Virus genome (UHGV): UHGV-1653917
DNA length: 10,259 nt
Strand: one strand, 5' to 3'
From: a virus
The position numbers and the translations under genes are program-made. Of the stretch, positions 1-10,259 are shown one piece after another (position 1 is the stretch's first letter; each line of letters starts with the position of its first letter). Below the pieces are notes generated by a model, which was not told where the DNA came from, searched no databases, and saw only the letters and a program-made list of their open reading frames with translations.

Positions 1-674
1 AAGAGCACGCCATTGTCCAGGTGGAAGAAATGCAGGCGGTGAATGCCGTGCTGTATGGCAAATACACCATGGAAGGGGATCAGTTTGATACTGTCGAGGT
101 GGATTTCGGGCGCTCTGAAGGAAATAACATTGAGCAGGCTGACGGTAAAAAATGGTCTGAGCAGGACCGTGATACGTTTGATCCGACGCATGATATTGAC
201 CTCTACTGCGATCAGGCCAGCGGCCTTGTGAATATCGCCATTATGGACGGTACGGTCTGGCGTCTGCTGAATGGCTTTAAGCTGTTCCGCGAAAAACTGG
301 ATACCCGTCGCGGTTCAAATTCTCAACTCGAAACGGCAGTGAAAGATCTGGGCGCAGTGGTGTCCTTCAAGGGGTATTACGGCGATCTGGCCATTGTGGT
401 GGCGAAAACGTCTTATGTGGCAGAGGACGGTACCGAAAAACGTTATCTGCCGGAGGGCATGCTGGTGTTGGGGAATACGGCGGCAGAGGGGATTCGTTGC
501 TATGGTGCCATTAAGGATGCACAGGCGTTGTCTGAAGGAGTGGTGGCTTCTTCCCGTTACCCGAAACACTGGCTGACCGTGGGCGATCCGTCCTGTGAAT
601 TCACCATGACGCAGTCCGCTCCGCTGATGGTGCTGCCGGATCCGGATGAGTTTGTGGTGGTACAGGTGAAATAA
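1..674 (+). CDS. E: Major capsid protein (lambda gpE family), C-terminal part; 5' end lies upstream of the window
   Basis: Frame is open from the window edge (first full codon at 3) to TAA at 672-674. The translation (..VEEMQAVNAVLYGKYTMEGDQFDTVEVDFGRSE.. KLDTRRGSNSQLETAVKDLG.. SAPLMVLPDPDEFVVVQVK) matches my recollection of the lambda gpE C-terminal half in many blocks but with numerous substitutions. Confidence 0.88.
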   Translation, partial: EHAIVQVEEMQAVNAVLYGKYTMEGDQFDTVEVDFGRSEGNNIEQADGKKWSEQDRDTFDPTHDIDLYCDQASGLVNIAIMDGTVWRLLNGFKLFREKLDTRRGSNSQLETAVKDLGAVVSFKGYYGDLAIVVAKTSYVAEDGTEKRYLPEGMLVLGNTAAEGIRCYGAIKDAQALSEGVVASSRYPKHWLTVGDPSCEFTMTQSAPLMVLPDPDEFVVVQVK

Positions 675-682
675 TCCGTGAG

Positions 683-711
683 CGGGGGCGAAATGCCCCC
701 GTGTCTTTTTT
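683..711 (+). terminator. Terminator-like GC hairpin plus T-run immediately downstream of E
   Basis: cgggggc (683-689), loop gaaat, gcccccg (695-701) forms a perfect 7-bp GC stem, followed by tcttttttt (703-711). Seen directly in sequence; function is inferred. Confidence 0.5.
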
Positions 712-725
712 CACAGGGGGCTGAT

Positions 726-1100
726 ATGGCAACGAAAGAGCAAAATCTGAAACGGCTTGATGAACTGGCCCTGATTCTGGGGCGTGAGCCGGATATATCC
801 GGGAGTGCCGCAGAGATAGCGCAGCGGGTGGCAGAATGGGAAGAGGAAATGCAGTCATCCGGCGATGATGTACAGGTTATGAATATGGATATCCGGGAGC
901 GGGAAACCGCGGCTCATGATGTTCGTGAGGAAACATCCGGCGCGTTAACGCGCATCAGAGTTCTGACCTGCCTCCATCTCTGTGGCGTTGATGGTGAAAC
1001 GGGGGAATCCGTTGAGCTTGCGGATGTTGGTCGGGTGATTCTGATTATGTCCTCAGATGCAAAAACACACGTTGATGGTGGAATGGCTGTTTATGCGTGA
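726..1100 (+). CDS. FI: FI-like DNA packaging / head assembly protein, divergent allele (124 aa)
   Basis: ATG at 726 preceded by aggggg (715-720). Its position between E and FII, its size (lambda FI is about 132 aa) and its acidic N-terminal region resemble gpFI, but the sequence is clearly different from lambda FI as I recall it. The GTG at 678 given by the ORF track lies inside the hairpin and has no RBS. Confidence 0.65.
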   Translation: MATKEQNLKRLDELALILGREPDISGSAAEIAQRVAEWEEEMQSSGDDVQVMNMDIRERETAAHDVREETSGALTRIRVLTCLHLCGVDGETGESVELADVGRVILIMSSDAKTHVDGGMAVYA

Positions 1101-1446
1101 TTTTCAGAATGCCTTTGATGCCGCCCTTGCCGGGGTGGACAGTACGATTGTTGAAGTGATGGGCATCAGTGCGCAGTTCACCTCCGGTGCACAGCGTGGC
1201 GGCGAGGTTCATGGCGTTTTTGACGATCCGGAGTCGCTGGGTTTTGCCAGTAGTGGGATCCGTATTGAAGGAAGTAACCCGTCATTATTTGTGCTTACGG
1301 ATACGGTTTGTGCTGTACGGCGTGGTGACACGCTGACCATTAACGGCGAGATGTTCTGGGTGGACCGTGTTTCTCCGGATGACGGAGGGAGTTGTTATCT
1401 CTGGCTCAACCGGGGGCAACCACCTGCCGCCAGCCGTCGCCGCTGA
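1093..1446 (+). CDS. FII: Head-tail joining protein (lambda gpFII family), 117 aa
   Basis: ATG at 1093 overlaps the FI stop (ATGCGTGA, 1093-1100). Length is identical to lambda FII. The C-terminus (RRGDTLTI..FWVDRVSPDDGGSC.LWL.RG.PPA..RRR) matches lambda FII as I recall it; the N-terminal two-thirds is diverged. Confidence 0.85.
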   Translation: MRDFQNAFDAALAGVDSTIVEVMGISAQFTSGAQRGGEVHGVFDDPESLGFASSGIRIEGSNPSLFVLTDTVCAVRRGDTLTINGEMFWVDRVSPDDGGSCYLWLNRGQPPAASRRR

Positions 1447-1457
1447 AAGGGGGATGT

Positions 1458-2036
1458 ATGGCCATAAAAGGTCTTGAGCAGGCCGTTGAAAACCTCAGCC
1501 GTATCAGCAGAACGGCGGTGCCCGGTGCCGCCGCAATGGCCATTAACCGCGTTGCTTCATCCGCGATATCGCAGTCGGCGTCACAGGTTGCCCGTGAGAC
1601 AAAGGTACGCCGGAAACTGGTAAAGGAAAGGGCCAGGCTGAAAAGGGCCACGGTCAAAAATCCGCAGGCCAGAATCAAAGTTAACCGGGGGGATTTGCCC
1701 GTAATCAGGCTGGGTAACGCGCGGGTTGTCCTGTCCCGACGCAGGCGTCGTAAAAAGGGGCAGCGTTCATCCCTGAAAGGTGGCGGCAGCGTGCTTGTGG
1801 TGGGAAACCGTCGTATTCCCGGCGCGTTTATTCAGCAACTGAAAAATGGCCGGTGGCATGTCATGCAGCGTGTGGCCGGGAAAAACCGTTACCCCATTGA
1901 TGTGGTGAAAATCCCGATGGCGGTGCCGCTGACCACGGCGTTTAAACAGAATATTGAGCGGATACGGCGTGAGCGTCTTCCGAAAGAGCTGGGCTATGCG
2001 CTGCAGCATCAACTGAGAATGGTAATAAAGCGATGA
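1458..2036 (+). CDS. Z: Tail completion protein (lambda gpZ), 192 aa
   Basis: ATG at 1458 preceded by aaagggggga. The translation MAIKGLEQAVENLSRIS...LRMVIKR matches lambda gpZ essentially end to end, and the 579-bp length is the same as lambda Z. Confidence 0.92.
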   Translation: MAIKGLEQAVENLSRISRTAVPGAAAMAINRVASSAISQSASQVARETKVRRKLVKERARLKRATVKNPQARIKVNRGDLPVIRLGNARVVLSRRRRRKKGQRSSLKGGGSVLVVGNRRIPGAFIQQLKNGRWHVMQRVAGKNRYPIDVVKIPMAVPLTTAFKQNIERIRRERLPKELGYALQHQLRMVIKR

Positions 2037-2428
2037 AACATACTGAACTCCGTGCAGCCGTACTGGATGCACTGGAGAAGCATGACACCGGGGCGACGCT
2101 TTTTGATGGTCGCCCTGCTGTTTTTGATGAGGAAGATTTTCCGGCAATTGCCGTTTATCTCACCGGCGCTGAATACACGGGCGAAGAGCTGGACAGCGAT
2201 ACCTGGCAGGCGGAGCTGCATATTGAAGTTTTCCTGCCTGCTCAGGTGCCGGATTCAGAGCTGGATTCGTGGATGGAGTCCCGGATTTATCCGGTGATGA
2301 GCGATATCCCGGCACTGTCAGATTTGATCACCAGTATGGTGGCCAGTGGCTATGACTACCGGCGCGACGATGATGCGGGCCTGTGGAGTTCAGCCGATCT
2401 GACTTATGTCATTACCTATGAAATGTGA
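2033..2428 (+). CDS. U: Tail terminator protein (lambda gpU), 131 aa
   Basis: ATGA start/stop overlap with Z at 2033-2036. The translation [69 protein letters not shown]...YEM matches lambda gpU as I recall it. Confidence 0.93.
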
Positions 2429-2435
2429 GGACGAT

Positions 2436-3176
2436 ATGCCAACACCAAATCCTCTGGCACCGGTGAAAGGGGCCGGGACCACACTGTGGGTTTATAACGG
2501 GAGCGGCGACCCTTATGCAAACCCGCTTTCAGACAATGACTGGTCGCGTCTGGCAAAAATTAAAGACCTGACGCCCGGCGAACTGACCGCTGAGTCCTAT
2601 GACGACAGTTATCTCGATGATGAAGATGCGGACTGGACCGCGACCGGGCAGGGGCAGAAATCCGCCGGAGATACCAGCTTCACGCTGGCGTGGATGCCCG
2701 GAGAGCAGGGGCAGCAGGCGCTGCTGGCGTGGTTTAATGAAGGTGATACCCGTGCCTATAAAATCCGCTTCCCGAACGGCACGGTCGATGTGTTCCGTGG
2801 CTGGGTCAGCAGTATCGGTAAGGCGGTGACGGCGAAGGAAGTGATCACCCGTACGGTGAAGGTCACCAATGTGGGCCGTCCGTCAATGGCAGAAGATCGC
2901 AGTACGGTGACGGCGGCAACCGGTATGACCGTGACGCCTGCCAGCTCCTCGGTGGTGAAAGGGCAGAGCACCACGCTGACCGTGGCCTTCCAGCCGGAGG
3001 GCGCAACTGACAAGAGCTTCCGTGCGGTGTCAGCGGATAAAACAAAAGCCACCGTGTCGGTCAGTGGTATGACCATCACCGTGAACGGCGTTGCTGCAGG
3101 CAAGGTCAACATTCCGGTTGTATCCGGTAATGGTGAACTTGCTGCGGTTGCAGAAATCACTGTCACCGACAGTTAA
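2436..3176 (+). CDS. V: Major tail tube protein (lambda gpV) with C-terminal Ig-like domain, 246 aa
   Basis: ATG at 2436 preceded by gagga (2427-2431). The translation [20 protein letters not shown]...[26 protein letters not shown]... matches lambda gpV with a few substitutions, and the length is identical to lambda V. The C-terminal roughly 90 aa is the known Ig-like (Big_2-type) domain. Confidence 0.95.
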
Positions 3177-3191
3177 TCCGGAGAGTCAGCG

Positions 3192-3614
3192 ATGTTCCTG
3201 AAAACCGAATCATTTGAACATAACGGCGTGACCGTCACGCTTTCTGAACTGTCAGCCCTGCAGCGTATTGAGCATCTCGCCCTGATGAAACAGCAGGCAG
3301 AACAGGCGGAGTCAGACAGCAACCGGCAGGTTACTGTGGAAGACGCCATCAGAACCGGTGCTTTTGTGGTGGCGATGTCCCTGTGGCATAACCATCCGCA
3401 GAAGACAAAGCAGCCTTCCATGAATGAAGCCGTTAAACAGATTGAGCAGGAAGTGCTTACCACCTGGCCCGCGGAGGCAATTTCTCATGCTGAAAACGTG
3501 GTGTACCGGCTGTCCGGTATGTATGGGTTTGTGGTGAATGATGCCCCTGACCAGGCAGAGGACTCCGGGCCTGCAGAGCCTGTTTCTGCGGGAAAGTGTT
3601 CGACGGTGAGCTGA
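3192..3614 (+). CDS. G: Tail assembly chaperone (lambda gpG), 140 aa
   Basis: ATG at 3192 preceded by ggagag. The translation MFLKTESFEHNGVTVTLSELSALQRIEHLALMKQQAEQ... matches lambda gpG as I recall it, and the slippery heptamer sits near its 3' end. Confidence 0.92.
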   Translation: MFLKTESFEHNGVTVTLSELSALQRIEHLALMKQQAEQAESDSNRQVTVEDAIRTGAFVVAMSLWHNHPQKTKQPSMNEAVKQIEQEVLTTWPAEAISHAENVVYRLSGMYGFVVNDAPDQAEDSGPAEPVSAGKCSTVS

Positions 3615-4030
3615 GTTTTGCCCTGAAACTGGCGCGAGAGATGGGGCGACCTGACTGGCGCGCCATGCTTGCCGGGATGTCATCCACGGAGTATGCCGAC
3701 TGGCACCGCTTTTACAGTACCCATTATTTTCATGATGTTCTGCTGGATATGCACTTTTCCGGGCTGACGTACACTGTGCTCAGCCTGTTTTTCAGCGATC
3801 CGGATATGCATCCGCTGGATTTCAGTTTGCTGAACCGGCGTGAGGATGACGAAGAGCCTGAAGATGATGTGCTGATGCAGAAAGCGGCAGGGCTTACCGG
3901 AGGCGTCCGCTTTGACCCGGACGGAAATGAAGTTATCCCCGCTTCCCCGGATATGGCGGGCATGACGGAGGATGACGTAATGCTGATGACAGTATCAGAA
4001 GGGATCGCAGGAGGAGTCCGGTATGGCTGA
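3192..4030 (+). CDS. T: Tail assembly chaperone G-T fusion made by -1 programmed ribosomal frameshift at 3590-3596 (T portion 3596-4030)
   Basis: The G frame reads GGA AAG at 3591-3596; a -1 slip on G_GGA_AAG puts the ribosome into the ORF at 3596-4030 (VFDGELSFALKLAREMGRPDWRAML...), which matches lambda gpT as I recall it. The T frame has no plausible independent start or RBS and ends overlapping the H start. Confidence 0.88.
3590..3596 (+). promoter_or_regulatory. Slippery heptanucleotide G_GGA_AAG for the -1 frameshift producing G-T
   Basis: The heptamer has the X_XXY_YYZ form in the correct phase relative to the G frame (codons GGA 3591-3593, AAG 3594-3596), at the position known for the lambda G-T frameshift. 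Confidence 0.88.
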
Positions 4031-6584
4031 ACCGGTAGGCGATCTGGTCGTTGATTTAAGTCTGGATGCGGCCAGATTTGACGAGCAGATGGCCAGAGTC
4101 AGGCGTCATTTTTCCGGTACGGAAAGTGATGCGAAAAAAACAGCGGCAGTCGTTGAACAGTCGCTGAGCCGACAGGCGCTGGCTGCACAGAAAGCGGGGA
4201 TTTCCGTCGGGCAGTATAAAGCCGCCATGCGTATGCTGCCTGCACAGTTCACCGACGTGGCCACGCAGCTTGCAGGCGGGCAAAGCCCGTGGCTGATCCT
4301 GCTGCAACAGGGTGGTCAGGTTAAGGACTCCTTCGGCGGGATGATCCCCATGTTCCGGGGGCTTGCCGGTGCGATCACCCTGCCGATGGTCGGGGCCACC
4401 TCGCTGGCGGTGGCGACCGGTGCGCTGGCGTATGCCTGGTATCAGGGTAACTCAACCCTGTCCGATTTCAACAAAACGCTGGTCCTTTCCGGCAATCAGT
4501 CGGGTCTGACGGCAGATCGTATGCTGGTCCTGTCCAGAGCCGGGCAGGCGGCAGGGCTGACGTTTAACCAGACCAGCGAGTCACTCAGCGCACTGGTTAA
4601 GGCGGGAGTAAGCGGTGAGGCTCAGATTGCATCCATCAGCCAGAGTGTGGCGCGTTTCTCCTCTGCATCCGGCGTGGAGGTGGACAAGGTCGCTGAAGCC
4701 TTCGGGAAGCTGACCACTGACCCGACGTCGGGGCTGACGGCGATGGCGCGCCAGTTCCATAACGTAACGGCGGAGCAGATTGCGTATGTTGCTCAGTTGC
4801 AGCGTTCCGGCGATGAATCCGGGGCATTGCAGGCGGCGAACGAGGCCGCAACGAAAGGGTTTGATGACCAGACCCGACGCCTGAAAGAGAACATGGGCAC
4901 GCTGGAAACCTGGGCAGACAGGACAGCACGGGCATTCAAATCCATGTGGGATGCGGTGCTGGATATTGGTCGTCCTGATACCGCTCAGGAGATGCTGATT
5001 AAGGCAGAGGCTGCGTTTAAGAAAGCGGACGACATCTGGAATCTGCGCAAGGATGATTATTTTGTTAACGATGAAGCGCGGGCGCGTTACTGGGATGATC
5101 GTGAAAAGGCCCGTCTTGCGCTTGAAGCCGCCCGAAAGAAGGCTGAACAGCAGAGTCAACAGGACAAAAATGCGCAGCAGCAGAGCGATACCGAAGCATC
5201 ACGGCTGAAATATACCGAAGAGGCGCAGAAGGCTTACGAACGGCTGCAGACACCGCTGGAGAAATATACCGCCCGTCAGGAAGAACTGAACAAGGCACTG
5301 AAAGACGGGAAAATCCTGCAGGCAGATTACAACACGCTGATGGCGGCGGCGAAAAAGGATTATGAAGCGACGCTGAAAAAGCCGAAACAGTCCGGCGTGA
5401 AGGTGTCTGCGGGCGATCGTCAGGAAGACAGTGCTCATGCTGCCCTGCTGACGCTTCAGGCTGAACTCCGGACGCTGGAGAAGCATGCCGGAGCAAATGA
5501 GAAAATCAGCCAGCAGCGCCGGGATTTGTGGAAGGCGGAGAGTCAGTTCGCGGTACTGGAGGAGGCGGCGCAACGTCGCCAGCTGTCTGCACAGGAGAAA
5601 TCCCTGCTGGCGCATAAAGATGAGACGCTGGAGTACAAACGCCAGCTGGCTGCACTTGGCGACAAGGTTACGTATCAGGAGCGCCTGAACGCGCTGGCGC
5701 AGCAGGCGGATAAATTCGCACAGCAGCAACGGGCAAAACGGGCCGCTATTGATGCGAAAAGCCGGGGGCTGACTGACCGGCAGGCAGAACGGGAAGCCAC
5801 GGAACAGCGCCTGAAGGAACAGTATGGCGATAATCCTCTGGCGCTGAATAACGTCATGTCAGAGCAGAAAAAGACCTGGGCGGCTGAAGACCTGCTTCGC
5901 GGGAACTGGATGGCAGGCCTGAAGTCCGGCTGGAGTGAGTGGGAAGAGAGTGCCACGGACAGTATGTCGCAGGTTAAAAGTGCTGCCACGCAGACCTTTG
6001 ATGGTATTGCGCAGAATATGGCGGCGATGCTGACCGGCAGTGAACAGAACTGGCGCAGCTTCACCCGTTCCGTGCTGTCCATGATGACAGAAATTCTGCT
6101 TAAGCAGGCAATGGTGGGGATTGTCGGGAGTATCGGCAGCGCCATTGGCGGGGCTGTTGGTGGCGGCGCATCCGCGTCAGGCGGTACAGCCATTCAGGCC
6201 GCTGCGGCGAAATTCCATTTTGCAACCGGAGGATTTACGGGAACCGGCGGCAAATATGAGCCAGCGGGGATTGTTCACCGTGGTGAGTTTGTCTTCACGA
6301 AGGAGGCAACCAGCCGGATTGGCGTGGGAAATCTCTACCGGCTGATGCGCGGCTATGCCACCGGCGGTTATGTCGGTACACCGGGCAGTCTGGCTGACAG
6401 CCGGTCGCAGGCGTCCGGGACGTTTGAGCAGAATAACCATGTGGTGATTAACAACGACGGCACGAACGGGCAGATAGGTCCGGCTGCTCTGAAGGCGGTG
6501 TATGACATGGCCCGCAAGGGTGCCCGTGATGAAATTCAGACACAGATGCGTGATGGTGGCCTGTTCTCCGGAGGTGGACGATGA
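4023..6584 (+). CDS. H: Tail tape measure protein (lambda gpH), 853 aa
   Basis: ATG at 4023 overlaps the end of the T frame. The 853-aa length equals lambda gpH. It has a long coiled-coil/alpha-helical charged middle region (many E/K/Q/A residues), hydrophobic segments near the N-terminus, and a Gly-rich C-terminal region (VGIVGSIGSAIGGAVGGGASASGG). The sequence matches lambda H as I recall it. Confidence 0.97.
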   Translation: MAEPVGDLVVDLSLDAARFDEQMARVRRHFSGTESDAKKTAAVVEQSLSRQALAAQKAGISVGQYKAAMRMLPAQFTDVATQLAGGQSPWLILLQQGGQVKDSFGGMIPMFRGLAGAITLPMVGATSLAVATGALAYAWYQGNSTLSDFNKTLVLSGNQSGLTADRMLVLSRAGQAAGLTFNQTSESLSALVKAGVSGEAQIASISQSVARFSSASGVEVDKVAEAFGKLTTDPTSGLTAMARQFHNVTAEQIAYVAQLQRSGDESGALQAANEAATKGFDDQTRRLKENMGTLETWADRTARAFKSMWDAVLDIGRPDTAQEMLIKAEAAFKKADDIWNLRKDDYFVNDEARARYWDDREKARLALEAARKKAEQQSQQDKNAQQQSDTEASRLKYTEEAQKAYERLQTPLEKYTARQEELNKALKDGKILQADYNTLMAAAKKDYEATLKKPKQSGVKVSAGDRQEDSAHAALLTLQAELRTLEKHAGANEKISQQRRDLWKAESQFAVLEEAAQRRQLSAQEKSLLAHKDETLEYKRQLAALGDKVTYQERLNALAQQADKFAQQQRAKRAAIDAKSRGLTDRQAEREATEQRLKEQYGDNPLALNNVMSEQKKTWAAEDLLRGNWMAGLKSGWSEWEESATDSMSQVKSAATQTFDGIAQNMAAMLTGSEQNWRSFTRSVLSMMTEILLKQAMVGIVGSIGSAIGGAVGGGASASGGTAIQAAAAKFHFATGGFTGTGGKYEPAGIVHRGEFVFTKEATSRIGVGNLYRLMRGYATGGYVGTPGSLADSRSQASGTFEQNNHVVINNDGTNGQIGPAALKAVYDMARKGARDEIQTQMRDGGLFSGGGR

Positions 6585-6910
6585 AAACCTTCCGCTGGAA
6601 AGTGAAACCCGGGATGGATGTGACATCGGCTCCTTCCGTCAGGGAGGTGCGCTTTGGTGATGGCTATTCCCAGCGTGCGCCTGCCGGGCTGAACGCTGAC
6701 CTGAAAACGTACAGCGTGACGCTGTCTGTCTCCCGTGAGGAGGCCACGGCGCTGGAGTCGTTTCTGGCTGAGCACGGGGGCTGGAAGGCCTTTCTGTGGA
6801 CGCCGCCTTATGGTTACAGGCAGATAAAGGTGACCTGCGCAAAATGGTCGTCGCAGGTCAGTATGTTGCGTGTTGAGTTCAGCGCAGAGTTTAAACAGGT
6901 GGTGAACTGA
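6581..6910 (+). CDS. M: Tail tip assembly protein (lambda gpM), 109 aa
   Basis: ATGA overlap with the H stop (6581-6584), with ggaggtgga RBS upstream. The translation MKTFRWKVKPGMDV...LRVEFSAEFKQVVN matches lambda gpM. Confidence 0.93.
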   Translation: MKTFRWKVKPGMDVTSAPSVREVRFGDGYSQRAPAGLNADLKTYSVTLSVSREEATALESFLAEHGGWKAFLWTPPYGYRQIKVTCAKWSSQVSMLRVEFSAEFKQVVN

Positions 6911-7608
6911 TGCAGGATATCCGGCAGGAAACACTGAATGAATGCACCCGTGCGGAGCAGTCGGCCAGCGTGGTGCTCTGGGAAATCGATCTGACAGAGG
7001 TTGGTGGAGAACGTTATTTTTTCTGTAATGAGCAGAACGAAAAAGGTGAGCCGGTCACCTGGCAGGGGCGGCAGTATCAGGCGTATCCCATTCAGGGGAG
7101 TGGTTTTGAACTGAATGGCAAAGGCACCAGTACGCGCCCCACGCTGACGGTTTCTAACCTGTACGGCATGGTCACCGGGATGGCGGAAGATCTGCAGAGT
7201 CTGGTCGGCGGAACGGTGGTCAGGCGTAAGGTTTACGCCCGTTTTCTGGATGCGGTGAACTTCGTCAACGGAAACAGAGACGCCGATCCGGAGCAGGAGG
7301 TGATCAGCCGCTGGCGCATTGAGCAGTGCAGCGAACTGAGCGCGGTCAGTGCCTCCTTTGTACTGTCCACGCCGACGGAAACGGACGGCGCTGTTTTTCC
7401 GGGACGTATCATGCTGGCCAACACCTGCACCTGGACCTATCGCGGCGATGAGTGCGGTTATCACGGTCCGGCGGTCGCGGATGAATATGACCAGCCAACG
7501 TCCGATATCACGAAGGATAAATGCAGCAAATGCCTGAGCGGTTGTAAGTTCCGCAATAACGTCGGCAACTTTGGCGGCTTCCTTTCCATTAACAAACTTT
7601 CGCAGTAA
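6910..7608 (+). CDS. L: Tail tip protein (lambda gpL), 232 aa, with Fe-S-binding Cys cluster
   Basis: TGATG overlap with the M stop (6908-6912). The translation MQDIRQETLNECTRAEQSASVVLWEIDLTEVGGERYFFCNEQ... matches lambda gpL, including the C-terminal cysteines (CTWTYRGDECGY...CSKCLSGC). Confidence 0.93.
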   Translation: MQDIRQETLNECTRAEQSASVVLWEIDLTEVGGERYFFCNEQNEKGEPVTWQGRQYQAYPIQGSGFELNGKGTSTRPTLTVSNLYGMVTGMAEDLQSLVGGTVVRRKVYARFLDAVNFVNGNRDADPEQEVISRWRIEQCSELSAVSASFVLSTPTETDGAVFPGRIMLANTCTWTYRGDECGYHGPAVADEYDQPTSDITKDKCSKCLSGCKFRNNVGNFGGFLSINKLSQ

Positions 7609-7612
7609 TCCC

Positions 7613-8356
7613 ATGACAGAGACAGAATCAGCGATTCTGGCGCACGCCCGGCGATGTGCGCCAGCGGAGTCGTGCGGCTTCGTGGTAAGCACGCCGGAGG
7701 GGGAAAGATATTTCCCCTGCGTGAATATCTCCGGTGAGCCGGAGGCGTATTTCCGGATGGCTCCGGAGGACTGGCTGCAGGCAGAGATGCAGGGTGAGAT
7801 TGTGGCGCTGGTCCACAGCCACCCCGGTGGTCTGCCCTGGCTGAGTGAGGCTGACCGGCGGCTGCAGGTGCAGAGTGATTTGCCGTGGTTGCTGGTCTGC
7901 CGGGGGGCGATTCATAAGTTCCGCTGTGTGCCGCATCTCACCGGGCGGCGCTTTGAGCACGGGGTGACGGACTGTTACACGCTGTTCCGGGACGCTTACC
8001 ATCTGGCGGGGATTGAGATGCCGGACTTTCATCGTGAGGATGACTGGTGGCGTAACGGCCAGAATCTCTATCTTGATAATCTGGAGGCCACAGGGCTGTA
8101 TCAGGTGCCGTTGTCATCAGCACAACCGGGCGATGTGCTGCTGTGCTGTTTTGGTTCATCGGTGCCGAATCATGCCGCCATTTACTGTGGTGATGGCGAG
8201 CTGCTGCACCATATTCCTGAACAACTGAGCAAACGAGAGAGGTATACCGACAAATGGCAGCGACGCACACACTCCCTCTGGCGTCACCGGGCATGGCGCG
8301 CATCTGCCTTTACGGGGATTTACAACGATTTGGTCGCCGCATCGACCTTCGTGTGA
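7613..8356 (+). CDS. K: Tail tip assembly protein (lambda gpK) with JAB/MPN metalloprotease-like and NlpC/P60-like domains; long form 247 aa from ATG 7613, classical shorter form from ATG 7757
   Basis: The frame is open from 7571 to TGA at 8354-8356. ATG 7613 lies 5 nt after the L stop and has a weak SD; ATG 7757 (MAPEDWLQ..) has ggagg 11 nt upstream and gives the 199-aa product of the classical lambda annotation. The JAMM-like motif HSHPGGLPWLSEAD and a downstream Cys/His region (DCYTLF ... NHAAIYCGDGELLHH) are present. Confidence 0.85.
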   Translation: MTETESAILAHARRCAPAESCGFVVSTPEGERYFPCVNISGEPEAYFRMAPEDWLQAEMQGEIVALVHSHPGGLPWLSEADRRLQVQSDLPWLLVCRGAIHKFRCVPHLTGRRFEHGVTDCYTLFRDAYHLAGIEMPDFHREDDWWRNGQNLYLDNLEATGLYQVPLSSAQPGDVLLCCFGSSVPNHAAIYCGDGELLHHIPEQLSKRERYTDKWQRRTHSLWRHRAWRASAFTGIYNDLVAASTFV

Positions 8357-8925
8357 AAACGGGGGCTGAAGCCATCCGGGCGCTGGCCACACAGCTCCCG
8401 GCGTTTCGTCAGAAACTGAGCGACGGCTGGTATCAGGTACGGATTGCCGGGCGGGACGTCAGCACGTCCGGGTTAACGGCGCAGTTACATGAGACTCTGC
8501 CTGATGGCGCTGTGATTCATATTGTTCCCAGAGTCGCCGGGGCCAAGTCAGGTGGCGTATTCCAGATTGTCCTGGGGGCTGCCGCCATTGCCGGATCATT
8601 CTTTACCGCCGGAGCCACCCTTGCAGCATGGGGGGCAGCCATTGGGGCCGGTGGTATGACCGGCATCCTGTTTTCTCTCGGTGCCAGTATGGTGCTCGGT
8701 GGTGTGGCGCAGATGCTGGCACCGAAAGCCAGAACTCCCCGTACACAGACAACGGATAACGGCAAACAGAACACCTATTTCTCCTCACTGGATAACATGG
8801 TTGCCCAGGGCAATGTTCTGCCGGTTCTGTACGGTGAAATGCGCGTGGGGTCACGCGTGGTTTCTCAGGAGATCAGCACGGCAGACGAAGGGGATGGTGG
8901 TCAGGTTGTGGTGATTGGTCGCTGA
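8254..8925 (+). CDS. I: Tail tip assembly protein (lambda gpI), 223 aa
   Basis: ATG at 8254 preceded by gagagagg. It overlaps the 3' end of K by 103 nt in a different frame, as in lambda. The translation MAATHTLPLASPGMARICLYGDLQRF... followed by a Gly/Ala-rich hydrophobic segment matches lambda gpI. Confidence 0.92.
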   Translation: MAATHTLPLASPGMARICLYGDLQRFGRRIDLRVKTGAEAIRALATQLPAFRQKLSDGWYQVRIAGRDVSTSGLTAQLHETLPDGAVIHIVPRVAGAKSGGVFQIVLGAAAIAGSFFTAGATLAAWGAAIGAGGMTGILFSLGASMVLGGVAQMLAPKARTPRTQTTDNGKQNTYFSSLDNMVAQGNVLPVLYGEMRVGSRVVSQEISTADEGDGGQVVVIGR

Positions 8926-8943
8926 TGAAAAACGTTTTATGTG

Positions 8944-8966
8944 AAACCGCCTCCGGGCGGTTTTAT
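8944..8966 (+). terminator. Terminator-like hairpin between I and J
   Basis: aaaccgcc (8944-8951), loop tccg, ggcggttt (8956-8963) is followed by the T-rich run ttttatcgtttat. It is a perfect inverted repeat; function is inferred. Confidence 0.4.
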
Positions 8967-8985
8967 CGTTTATGGAGCATGACGA

Positions 8986-10259
8986 ATGGGTAAAGGCAGC
9001 AGTAAGGGGCATACCCCGCGCGAAGCGAAGGACAACCTGAAGTCCACGCAGCTGCTGAGTGTGATCGATGCCATCAGCGAAGGGCCGGTTGAAGGTCCGG
9101 TGGATGGATTAAAAAGCGTGCTGCTGAACAGTACGCCGGTGCTGGACAGTGAGGGGAATACCAATATATCCGGCGTCACGGTGGTGTTCCGGGCCGGTGA
9201 GCAGGAGCAGACTCCGCCGGAGGGATTTGAATCCTCCGGTTCCGAGACGGTGCTGGGTACGGAAGTGAAATATGACACGCCGATCACCCGCACCATCACG
9301 TCGGCAAACATCGACCGTCTGCGCTTTACCTTCGGTGTGCAGGCACTGGTGGAAACCACCTCAAAGGGGGACAGGAATCCATCGGAAGTCCGCCTGCTGG
9401 TTCAGATTCAACGTAACGGTGGCTGGGTGACGGAAAAAGACATCACCATTAAGGGCAAAACCACCTCGCAGTATCTGGCCTCGGTGGTGGTGGATAACCT
9501 GCCGCCGCGCCCGTTTAATATCCGGATGCGCAGAATGACGCCGGACAGCACCACAGACCAGCTGCAGAACAAAACGCTCTGGTCGTCATACACCGAAATC
9601 ATCGATGTGAAACAGTGCTACCCGAACACGGCACTGGTCGGCGTGCAGGTGGACTCGGAACAGTTCGGCAGCCAGCAGGTGAGCCGTAATTATCATCTTC
9701 GCGGGCGCATTCTGCAGGTGCCGTCGAACTATAACCCGCAGACGCGGCAATACAGCGGTATCTGGGACGGAACGTTTAAGCCAGCATACAGCAACAACAT
9801 GGCCTGGTGTCTGTGGGATATGCTGACCCATCCGCGCTACGGCATGGGGAAGCGTCTCGGTGCGGCGGATGTGGACAAATGGGCGCTGTATGTCATCGGC
9901 CAGAATTGCGACCAGTCGGTGCCGGATGGCTTTGGTGGCACGGAGCCGCGCATCACCTGTAATGCCTGGCTGACCACACAGCGCAAGGCGTGGGATGTTC
10001 TCAGTGATTTCTGCTCGGCGATGCGCTGTATGCCGGTATGGAACGGGCAGACGCTGACGTTCGTGCAGGACCGACCGTCGGATAAGGTGTGGACCTATAA
10101 CCGCAGTAATGTGGTGATGCCGGATGATGGTGCGCCGTTCCGCTACAGCTTCAGCGCCCTGAAAGACCGCCATAATGCTGTTGAGGTGAACTGGATTGAC
10201 CCGGATAACGGCTGGGAGACGGCGACAGAGCTTGTGGAGGACACGCAGGCCATTGCCCG
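8986..10259 (+). CDS. J: Tail tip / central fibre host-specificity protein (lambda gpJ), N-terminal about 424 aa; 3' end beyond the window
   Basis: ATG at 8986 preceded by ggag. The frame is open to the window end, which is why the ORF track does not list it. The translation MGKGSSKGHTPREAKDNLKSTQLLSVIDAISEGP... matches the lambda gpJ N-terminus as I recall it. Confidence 0.93.
   Translation, partial: MGKGSSKGHTPREAKDNLKSTQLLSVIDAISEGPVEGPVDGLKSVLLNSTPVLDSEGNTNISGVTVVFRAGEQEQTPPEGFESSGSETVLGTEVKYDTPITRTITSANIDRLRFTFGVQALVETTSKGDRNPSEVRLLVQIQRNGGWVTEKDITIKGKTTSQYLASVVVDNLPPRPFNIRMRRMTPDSTTDQLQNKTLWSSYTEIIDVKQCYPNTALVGVQVDSEQFGSQQVSRNYHLRGRILQVPSNYNPQTRQYSGIWDGTFKPAYSNNMAWCLWDMLTHPRYGMGKRLGAADVDKWALYVIGQNCDQSVPDGFGGTEPRITCNAWLTTQRKAWDVLSDFCSAMRCMPVWNGQTLTFVQDRPSDKVWTYNRSNVVMPDDGAPFRYSFSALKDRHNAVEVNWIDPDNGWETATELVEDTQAIA

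Follow-up and report, generated by a model that had tools for sequence, protein, structure and literature searches.

An apparent head/tail junction at the FII/Z gene boundary in the late operon of a phage-21-like lambdoid prophage

Introduction

Mosaicism among the lambdoid phages is textbook material, as is the combination of diverged head genes with lambda-like tail genes in phage 21, and classical heteroduplex and lambda-21 hybrid work stands behind it. The stretch of DNA analysed here (10,259 nt, hereafter the window) shows a contrast of this kind, which raises the question of the exact position at which head genes diverged from lambda give way to tail genes resembling those of lambda. A preliminary description made from the sequence alone had placed the junction inside FII, a protein that contacts both head and tail, and it has to be asked whether FII is really divided between two lineages. 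Lambdoid head and tail genes are known to behave as separate modules (PMC9836094). An explicit published breakpoint was sought for phage 21: the 2022 announcement of its complete genome carries no discussion of the join, and the 1993 head-gene record (M81255) ends inside FII (gene 8), short of the junction.

Gene content of the window and its nearest relatives

The plus strand of the window carries an unbroken lambda-type late gene series that is colinear with the annotated genes of lambda and phage 21. From the ORF list and a one-to-one alignment, E, FI, FII, Z, U, V, G/T, H, M, L, K, I and J all lie on this one strand, in the order of a lambdoid cluster. The series opens within the major capsid gene E (3' part, 1-674), of which the last 223 codons are present in frame 3 (3-671) with the stop at 672-674, and the fragment matches the Pfam family Phage_cap_E over profile positions 114-329 of 329 (143 bits, E = 1.1e-41). 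The DNA packaging chaperone FI (726-1100) is of the phage 21 allele and matches Packaging_FI (60.7 bits, E = 2.7e-16). The head-tail joining or stopper protein FII (1093-1446) matches Phage_attach (58.6 bits, E = 1e-15) as well as the gpFII structures in PDB entries 1k0h and 8k37 (E = 2e-47). The tail completion gene Z (1458-2036) and the tail terminator gene U (2033-2428) are both of the lambda/21 type, and their products match Minor_tail_Z (273.7 bits) and Phage_tail_U (207.7 bits). The Pfam scan covered these five products, each of which fell into the expected family with a score above the gathering cut-off.

The remaining genes on the plus strand are those of the major tail protein V (2436-3176), G (3192-3614) together with the G-T frameshift product as in the phage 21 annotation (3192-4030), the tape measure H (4023-6584), the tail-tip genes M (6581-6910), L (6910-7608), K (7613-8356) and I (8254-8925), and the 5' part of the central tail fibre gene J (8986-10259; 424 codons, open at the window end). 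The coordinates of G, of G-T and of the start of J were carried over from the phage 21 annotation with an offset of 1500. As a whole, the window represents the structural part of the late operon (E'-FI-FII-Z-U-V-G/T-H-M-L-K-I-J') in a lambdoid E. coli prophage resembling phage 21. The best database matches to the whole window were phage 21 (OL657228) and PhiR63_2, with 98.1% identity over 10,259 bases, and no complete E. coli genome or phage record exceeded 98.5% over the whole window.

A step in identity to lambda at the end of FII

Comparison with lambda separated the window into two unequal parts. Megablast aligned lambda and its laboratory derivatives to positions 1318-10259 only, at 96.5% nucleotide identity, and sensitive blastn added positions 1-664 at 68%. 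When the four-way alignment was read in 100-nt windows, identity to lambda ranged from 0.38 to 0.77 over 1-1300, stood at 0.72 at 1301-1400 and 0.89 at 1401-1500, and past 1500 remained at 0.86-1.00, mostly at or above 0.95. Sliding identity against lambda confirmed the step; similarity was neither uniform over 1-1457 nor uniformly low over the whole window.

The encoded proteins are divided in the same way. On the head side, amino-acid identity to lambda was 63.3% for the E C-terminus (lambda E residues 120-340), 26.1% for FI and 65.2% for FII, and the BLASTP alignment of FI with lambda FI was limited to the first 53 residues (E = 1e-6). This bears out the preliminary description, in which the E C-terminus and FII matched lambda partially and FI was a different allele. 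Among the tail proteins, identity to lambda was 99.0% for Z, 96.9% for U, 95.9% for V, 91.4% for G, 99.1% for H, 89.0% for M, 97.8% for L, 92.2% for K, 99.6% for I and 98.1% for the J N-terminus; the corresponding values against phage 21 were 100% for V and G, 97.7% for H and 99.1% for J. Z through J had also been called lambda-identical, which captures a real contrast (89-99.6%) but overstates it for G, M and K. The head/tail contrast in lambda identity is real and lies far beyond chance.

Junction A, the onset of near-identity to lambda, extends over 1434-1446 on the plus strand and covers only the last three FII codons (RRR) and the stop. The last mismatch to lambda is found at 1433 and is followed by 76 identical bases and then by a divergence of about 2%. 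A two-rate likelihood analysis against lambda set the change point at nt 1434, where divergence falls from 38% to 1.9% (2ΔlnL 239). A weaker step within FII, at 1318, takes divergence from 44% to 25% (2ΔlnL 12.7), and the rise in identity is thus a two-step one. Position 1434 is the final base of FII codon 114, leaving codons 115-117 and the stop on the lambda-identical side, and all 42 residue differences from lambda FII are located upstream of the break, on the 21-type side. Since near-identity to lambda begins only at 1434, FII does not appear to be chimeric with respect to lambda, and the head/tail join, judged from these alignments, effectively lies at the FII/Z gene boundary, with FII of the 21 type throughout its differing length. 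The earlier suggestion of a junction inside a protein that touches both head and tail is consequently not supported in that form, the lambda-like side taking in no more of FII than its last three codons and the stop.

The step extends to synonymous sites. Against lambda, the proportion of synonymous differences (pS; Nei-Gojobori counts in FII) was 0.80 in FII codons 1-75 and 0.55 in codons 76-114, and it was 0.068 in Z, 0.055 in U, 0.06 in H and 0.04 in I. The overall range was 0.55-0.80 on the head side of 1434 and 0.04-0.22 on the tail side, where M (0.22) and V (0.15) were raised. The abrupt nucleotide step at 1434 therefore includes synonymous sites, and because their divergence drops about ten-fold at this position, a difference in selective constraint cannot explain it.

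Re-assortment of head and tail alleles

The arrangement at junction A is widespread. Phage 21, PhiR63_2 and ev017 all carry it, as do hundreds of complete genomes, and the junction-spanning segment 1260-1610 was recovered at 95% identity or more from 433 records of complete E. coli genomes. Something spanning at least 80% of the window is carried by 3,651 of 5,426 E. coli genomes.

Allelic combinations were followed in the best 80 IMG/VR loci, all of which hold a 21-type FII and which are redundant, so that breakpoint counts among them are not independent and diversity inside FII is biased low. Among these loci the alleles of E, FI, FII, Z, U and V occur in many combinations. Besides lambda-type Z, at least three further Z types accompany the 21-type FII, and lambda-type Z was found with both lambda-type and 21-type FII. 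In 45 unique loci with another Z type, similarity to the window breaks off at 1425, no more than 9 nt from the break seen against lambda. The 3' end of FII thus appears from these sequences to be a recurrent head/tail module boundary, the counts being illustrative. The preliminary reading of the locus as classic lambdoid recombinational mosaicism finds support in the abrupt step in total and synonymous divergence, in the same arrangement in phage 21 and in the re-assortment of alleles in these 80 loci.

Beyond the junction, the tail genes are themselves mixed. Past 1434, the window sides with phage 21 at 244 variable sites and with lambda at 87, and another 36 are peculiar to it; these sites are arranged in alternating runs. 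One run of 48 sites at the 3' end of H (6378-6560) follows lambda and not phage 21. The tail region, including M, L, K and I, is a fine patchwork of 21-like and lambda-like sites.

A further exchange at the E/FI boundary

The FI and FII alleles of the window are 100% identical to those of phage 21 (OL657228) at both the nucleotide and the amino-acid level, but the capsid allele is not of the phage 21 type. The E C-terminus is 99.3% identical in nucleotides to that of phage 204576, 97.3% to that of PhiR12_1 and 88.9% to that of phage 21, identifying it as a PhiR12/204576-type allele. Change-point segmentation, mismatch lists and allele clustering delimited a hypervariable patch in E (77-188, plus strand, approximately lambda residues 145-181) whose divergence from phage 21 amounts to 35% and which matches PhiR12_1 exactly.

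The crossover from the PhiR12/204576-type E to the 21-type FI (junction B) falls within 642-717 on the plus strand, an interval that takes in the final 30 nt of E, its stop codon and the greater part of the E-FI spacer. This interval is limited by the last mismatch to phage 21 at 641 and the first mismatch to PhiR12_1 at 718, and the change points were located at 642 against phage 21 and 752 against PhiR12_1. This junction went unmentioned in the preliminary description. Population diversity, taken over the sample of 21-type-FII loci, is lowest at 651-700 (pi 0.008-0.017). The E-FI spacer segment is 95-100% identical in 79 of the 80 best loci (the 79 that hold the segment), whatever the flanking alleles.

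The same spacer contains a terminator-like G+C hairpin with a T run (682-712, plus strand), consisting of 9 pairs, 7 of them G-C, followed by GTCTTTTTTC. Its fold of -22.1 kcal/mol gave z = -1.05, which is not significant alone, and the terminator scan returned 3 sites against 2.0 expected. The hairpin was rejected as a significant structure on the basis of this z value and of a scan close to expectation, its conservation alone being of note.

The combination of alleles at junction B is rare, though other genomes reach the same pairing of E patch and FI. It is present in EC21GDE043, which is 99.9% identical over 1-1500 and carries an IS26 in V; only 2 E. coli records match this interval at 99% or more, and 15 more match at 95-99%. 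At least five complete E. coli genomes, namely SF-468, three equally matching records and ARS-C301, hold a PhiR12-type E patch with a 21-type FI through junctions inside E. The low diversity and the conservation of the spacer at junction B fit a homologous crossover within it.

Among 64 related unique sequences, a given type of patch goes almost without exception with a given type of FI, and the window is there the sole pairing of a PhiR12-type patch with a 21-type FI. This patch may correspond to the 'EFi domain' reported by Murialdo and Tzamtzis (1997). It is conceivable, and in our judgement unlikely, that the E/FI junction has split usual partners, the E surface patch (77-188) and the divergent C-terminal domain of FI. 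The window would then be a natural 'mismatched' pair if the contact between FI and the capsid were allele-specific, with the spacer hairpin as a recombination linker. Against this stand the E. coli genomes, at least five in number, that reach the same pairing by other junctions inside E, and plain physical linkage across some 700 bp, in a sample that is redundant, likewise accounts for the association.

The docking surface between FII and U

In the lambda virion structure, the N-terminal helix of FII (4-24) holds the gpW adaptor (PMC10721106), and lambda cryo-EM showed that the beta-hairpin (46-62) and the C-terminal loop (108-117) of FII bind the O-loop (25-37) of gpU (PMC10721106). The U protein of the window differs from lambda U at F23L, A34E, V39I and A79S, the first three of which are in or flanking the O-loop. 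The possibility that U is co-adapted with FII was rejected, as the exact 21-type FII is paired with lambda-like, 21-like and intermediate U O-loops in the IMG/VR loci. In these loci, all allele types show next to no variation in the FII hairpin, the FII C-terminal loop or the U O-loop. We infer that the FII-U docking surface is common to the whole group, which would be the simplest reason for the free exchange of head and tail modules.

Alternative explanations

The weaker step at 1318 suggests another possibility, namely that a crossover near this position joined a 21-type, head-facing N-terminal part of FII to a lambda-type, tail-facing C-terminal part, giving a protein suited to both partners; the preliminary description had likewise taken the sharp rise at RRGDTLTI (nt 1318) as the junction. 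The C-terminal third of FII (RRGDTLTI...PPAAS, 1318-1433, plus strand) does have intermediate identity to lambda, at about 78% in nucleotides and 81% in amino acids, and in addition to the weak change point, megablast matches of lambda and of many prophages begin exactly at 1318. The lower pS of codons 76-114 relative to codons 1-75 (Fisher p = 0.023) makes an older exchange or gene conversion inside FII conceivable, and intragenic recombinants are known elsewhere: P0029 combines a lambda-like N-terminal with a 21-like C-terminal part, and the loci L034, L037 and L087 break within FII at 1185-1206. However, synonymous differences from lambda still amount to 55% in codons 76-114, and no exact lambda match within 1318-1433 exceeds 14 nt, which speaks against a recent lambda segment; FII does not divide into a part near-identical to one parent and a rest near-identical to another. 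Nonsynonymous divergence (pN) from lambda falls from 0.33 in codons 1-75 to 0.15 in codons 76-114. In an alignment of 28 FII sequences, with identity down to 48%, each of the 27 comparisons of homologues with the window FII showed stronger conservation in the C-terminal third than in the first two-thirds, those with Salmonella homologues at 48-53% identity included. The tail-contacting beta-hairpin, moreover, sits in the strongly 21-type N-terminal part. A chimeric FII is consequently quite improbable, though less so than the readings weighed below, and the rise at RRGDTLTI appears from the family alignment to be a property of FII proteins in general, chiefly a change in protein constraint mirroring family-wide conservation and not the scar of a recent crossover.

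Two further readings dispense with a natural exchange at 1434 altogether. Protein constraint does differ by gene (pN 0.002 to 0.33) and FI is a known fast-diverging protein, so the head-completion genes could simply have evolved faster than the tail genes in one vertical lineage. A single lineage of this kind is scarcely credible when synonymous divergence changes about ten-fold over a few bases, and when an identical FII allele stands next to several Z, U and V alleles unrelated to one another, and the same Z allele next to both lambda-type and 21-type FII. Alternatively, the junction could be an artefact of assembly or sampling in the contig of the window, a suspicion fed by the ceiling of 98.5% on the best complete E. 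coli genome match to the whole window and by the odd tandem or duplicated structure of the relative FY26. This too is very improbable, since junction A recurs in phage 21, PhiR63_2, ev017 and hundreds of complete genomes, and since junction B is found in EC21GDE043.

Proposed origin of the window

Recombination between modules is very probably the best explanation: head genes of the 21 lineage would have been joined to tail genes of the lambda/21 lineage at nt 1434, with an additional exchange between E and FI. The steps in total and synonymous identity, the re-assortment of alleles and the conserved interface residues are observed directly; how, in which direction and when the exchanges took place, and whether the modules are functionally compatible, is a matter of inference. 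The head-completion genes are of the phage 21 head lineage, long separated from that of lambda, with saturated synonymous sites between the two. The tail genes are of a lineage common to lambda and phage 21, within which divergence amounts to a few per cent. Recombination between lambdoid genomes would then have set the head/tail module boundary at 1434, most likely by homologous or 'relaxed' homologous recombination of a phage with resident prophages.

Tolerance of the join at 1434 would follow from an FII-U interface that all allele types have kept, so that any head module of the group may dock on any of its tail modules. A second, rarer exchange at 642-717 would have placed the PhiR12/204576-type capsid allele beside the 21-type FI, within the nearly invariant stretch formed by the E stop and the terminator-like hairpin.

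Comparison with known systems

Phage 21 is the closest model for the window. The two share the gene order, identical FI, FII, U, V, G, L and I proteins and the same FII/Z join to a lambda-type tail, and from about 642 to about 5500 their nucleotide sequences are identical save for 5 sites. Junction A is accordingly the phage 21 boundary between diverged head genes and the tail genes common with lambda, and it is contained in the complete phage 21 genome published in 2022, for which two assembly methods gave an identical result; phage 21 is itself a viable, sequenced phage. The differences from phage 21 lie in the E C-terminus (88.9% in nucleotides, 91.9% in amino acids, with the 35% diverged patch at 77-188), in the 3' patch of H at 6378-6560, which is lambda-type in the window and in phage 21 only 66% identical to it over 6401-6500, and in mixed sites dispersed from L to J.

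Lambda itself (NC_001416) resembles the window in its colinear gene order and in Z to J, at 96.5% in nucleotides and 89-99.6% in amino acids. It differs in E (63% amino-acid identity), FI (26%) and FII (65%), the last with saturated synonymous sites, in an E-FI spacer unrelated to that of the window, and in a 1-nt deletion in K of the lambda reference relative to the window. PhiR12_1 (PV340549) and phage 204576 (CP025907) show the opposite pattern: the E C-terminus (97.3% and 99.3% in nucleotides, respectively) and the E-FI spacer with its hairpin are those of the window, whereas FI (47% amino-acid identity), FII (88%), Z (74%), U (82%), V (68%) and G (69%) point to a different tail lineage.

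The finding is ordinary, long-known lambdoid mosaicism and nothing new in kind; what the window offers is refinement. The join at the FII stop codon, with an FII that does not appear chimeric, agrees with the view that the junctions which survive are those at gene boundaries. The conservation of the FII-U docking elements across allele types would explain the free exchange of head and tail modules, and the extra, rarer exchange at the E/FI boundary appears to lie inside an almost invariant spacer. As the modular-genome hypothesis describes, near-identical segments alternate with highly diverged ones, and both junctions are placed at gene or module boundaries. There is no categorical difference from that hypothesis, to which the window adds exact coordinates for one well-known boundary and for one rarer exchange between E and FI.

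Allelic junction between E and FI

Comparison with Escherichia phage 21 (OL657228) showed that the window passes at 642-717 from an E (major capsid) allele of the type found in PhiR12_1 (PV340549) and phage 204576 (CP025907) to a 21-type FI (packaging chaperone) allele, and this interval is a second mosaic junction of the window relative to phage 21. The junction sits within a near-invariant stretch that holds the E stop codon and a terminator-like hairpin (682-712, inside the junction itself), and diversity across 64 related unique sequences is lowest in this stretch. In the sampled IMG/VR loci, a redundant set selected for 21-type FII (head-tail joining), the allele of a hypervariable patch in E (77-188, approximately lambda residues 145-181) and that of the divergent C-terminal half of FI (848-1079) pair almost perfectly, and the window is an exception. 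SF-468 and ARS-C301 belong to a handful of E. coli genomes in which the pairing is likewise broken, with junctions that lie inside E.

Relatives with unusual structure

In E. coli FY26 (NZ_CP101741; locus L091, 8646-19953), the 21-type head-tail cluster ends early, within L, and the truncated L directly abuts a partial E and a PhiR12-type FI-FII-Z-U-V cluster; the region also contains an additional partial capsid ORF. The 21-type and PhiR12-type alleles thus stand next to each other on a single chromosome, unless this part of the assembly is wrong. Over 1-3106, the window is closest to EC21GDE043 (locus L004, 15170-15874), in which V is interrupted by IS26. Separately, NCBI and UniRef attribute a 169-aa FII homologue (P0008) to Bacillus thuringiensis Sbt003; the protein scores very strongly against the enterobacterial-phage FII family, and its label probably stems from contamination or mislabelling in the Sbt003 assembly.

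Small patches in the tail genes

The N-terminus of V (major tail; 2436-2500) and part of M (tail tip; 6586-6818) have only 87% and 86-92% nucleotide identity, respectively, to lambda (NC_001416), yet phage 21 is identical to the window in both, which suggests that these patches are older small replacements within the "lambda-like" tail. Synonymous divergence from lambda (pS) over the whole genes is 0.15 for V and 0.22 for M. From L to J, short runs of lambda-like and 21-like sites alternate, and the window carries bases of its own at 36 sites where lambda and phage 21 agree (5747-6044 and scattered over 6855-10179). Identity over the whole window did not exceed 98.5% for any phage record or any complete E. 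coli genome.

An unbroken run of 48 informative sites at the 3' end of H (6378-6560) is lambda-type in the window, and phage 21 has only ~66% identity to the window there; this interval, encoding the C-terminus of the tape-measure protein, is a short replaced patch. K differs in annotated length, with 199 aa in lambda versus 247 aa in the window and phage 21. Relative to both, the lambda reference, perhaps through a genuine lambda mutation or else an old sequencing error, has one added base directly upstream of K (7606/7607) and is one base short in the K N-terminal region (7747), and these two indels would explain the shorter lambda protein.
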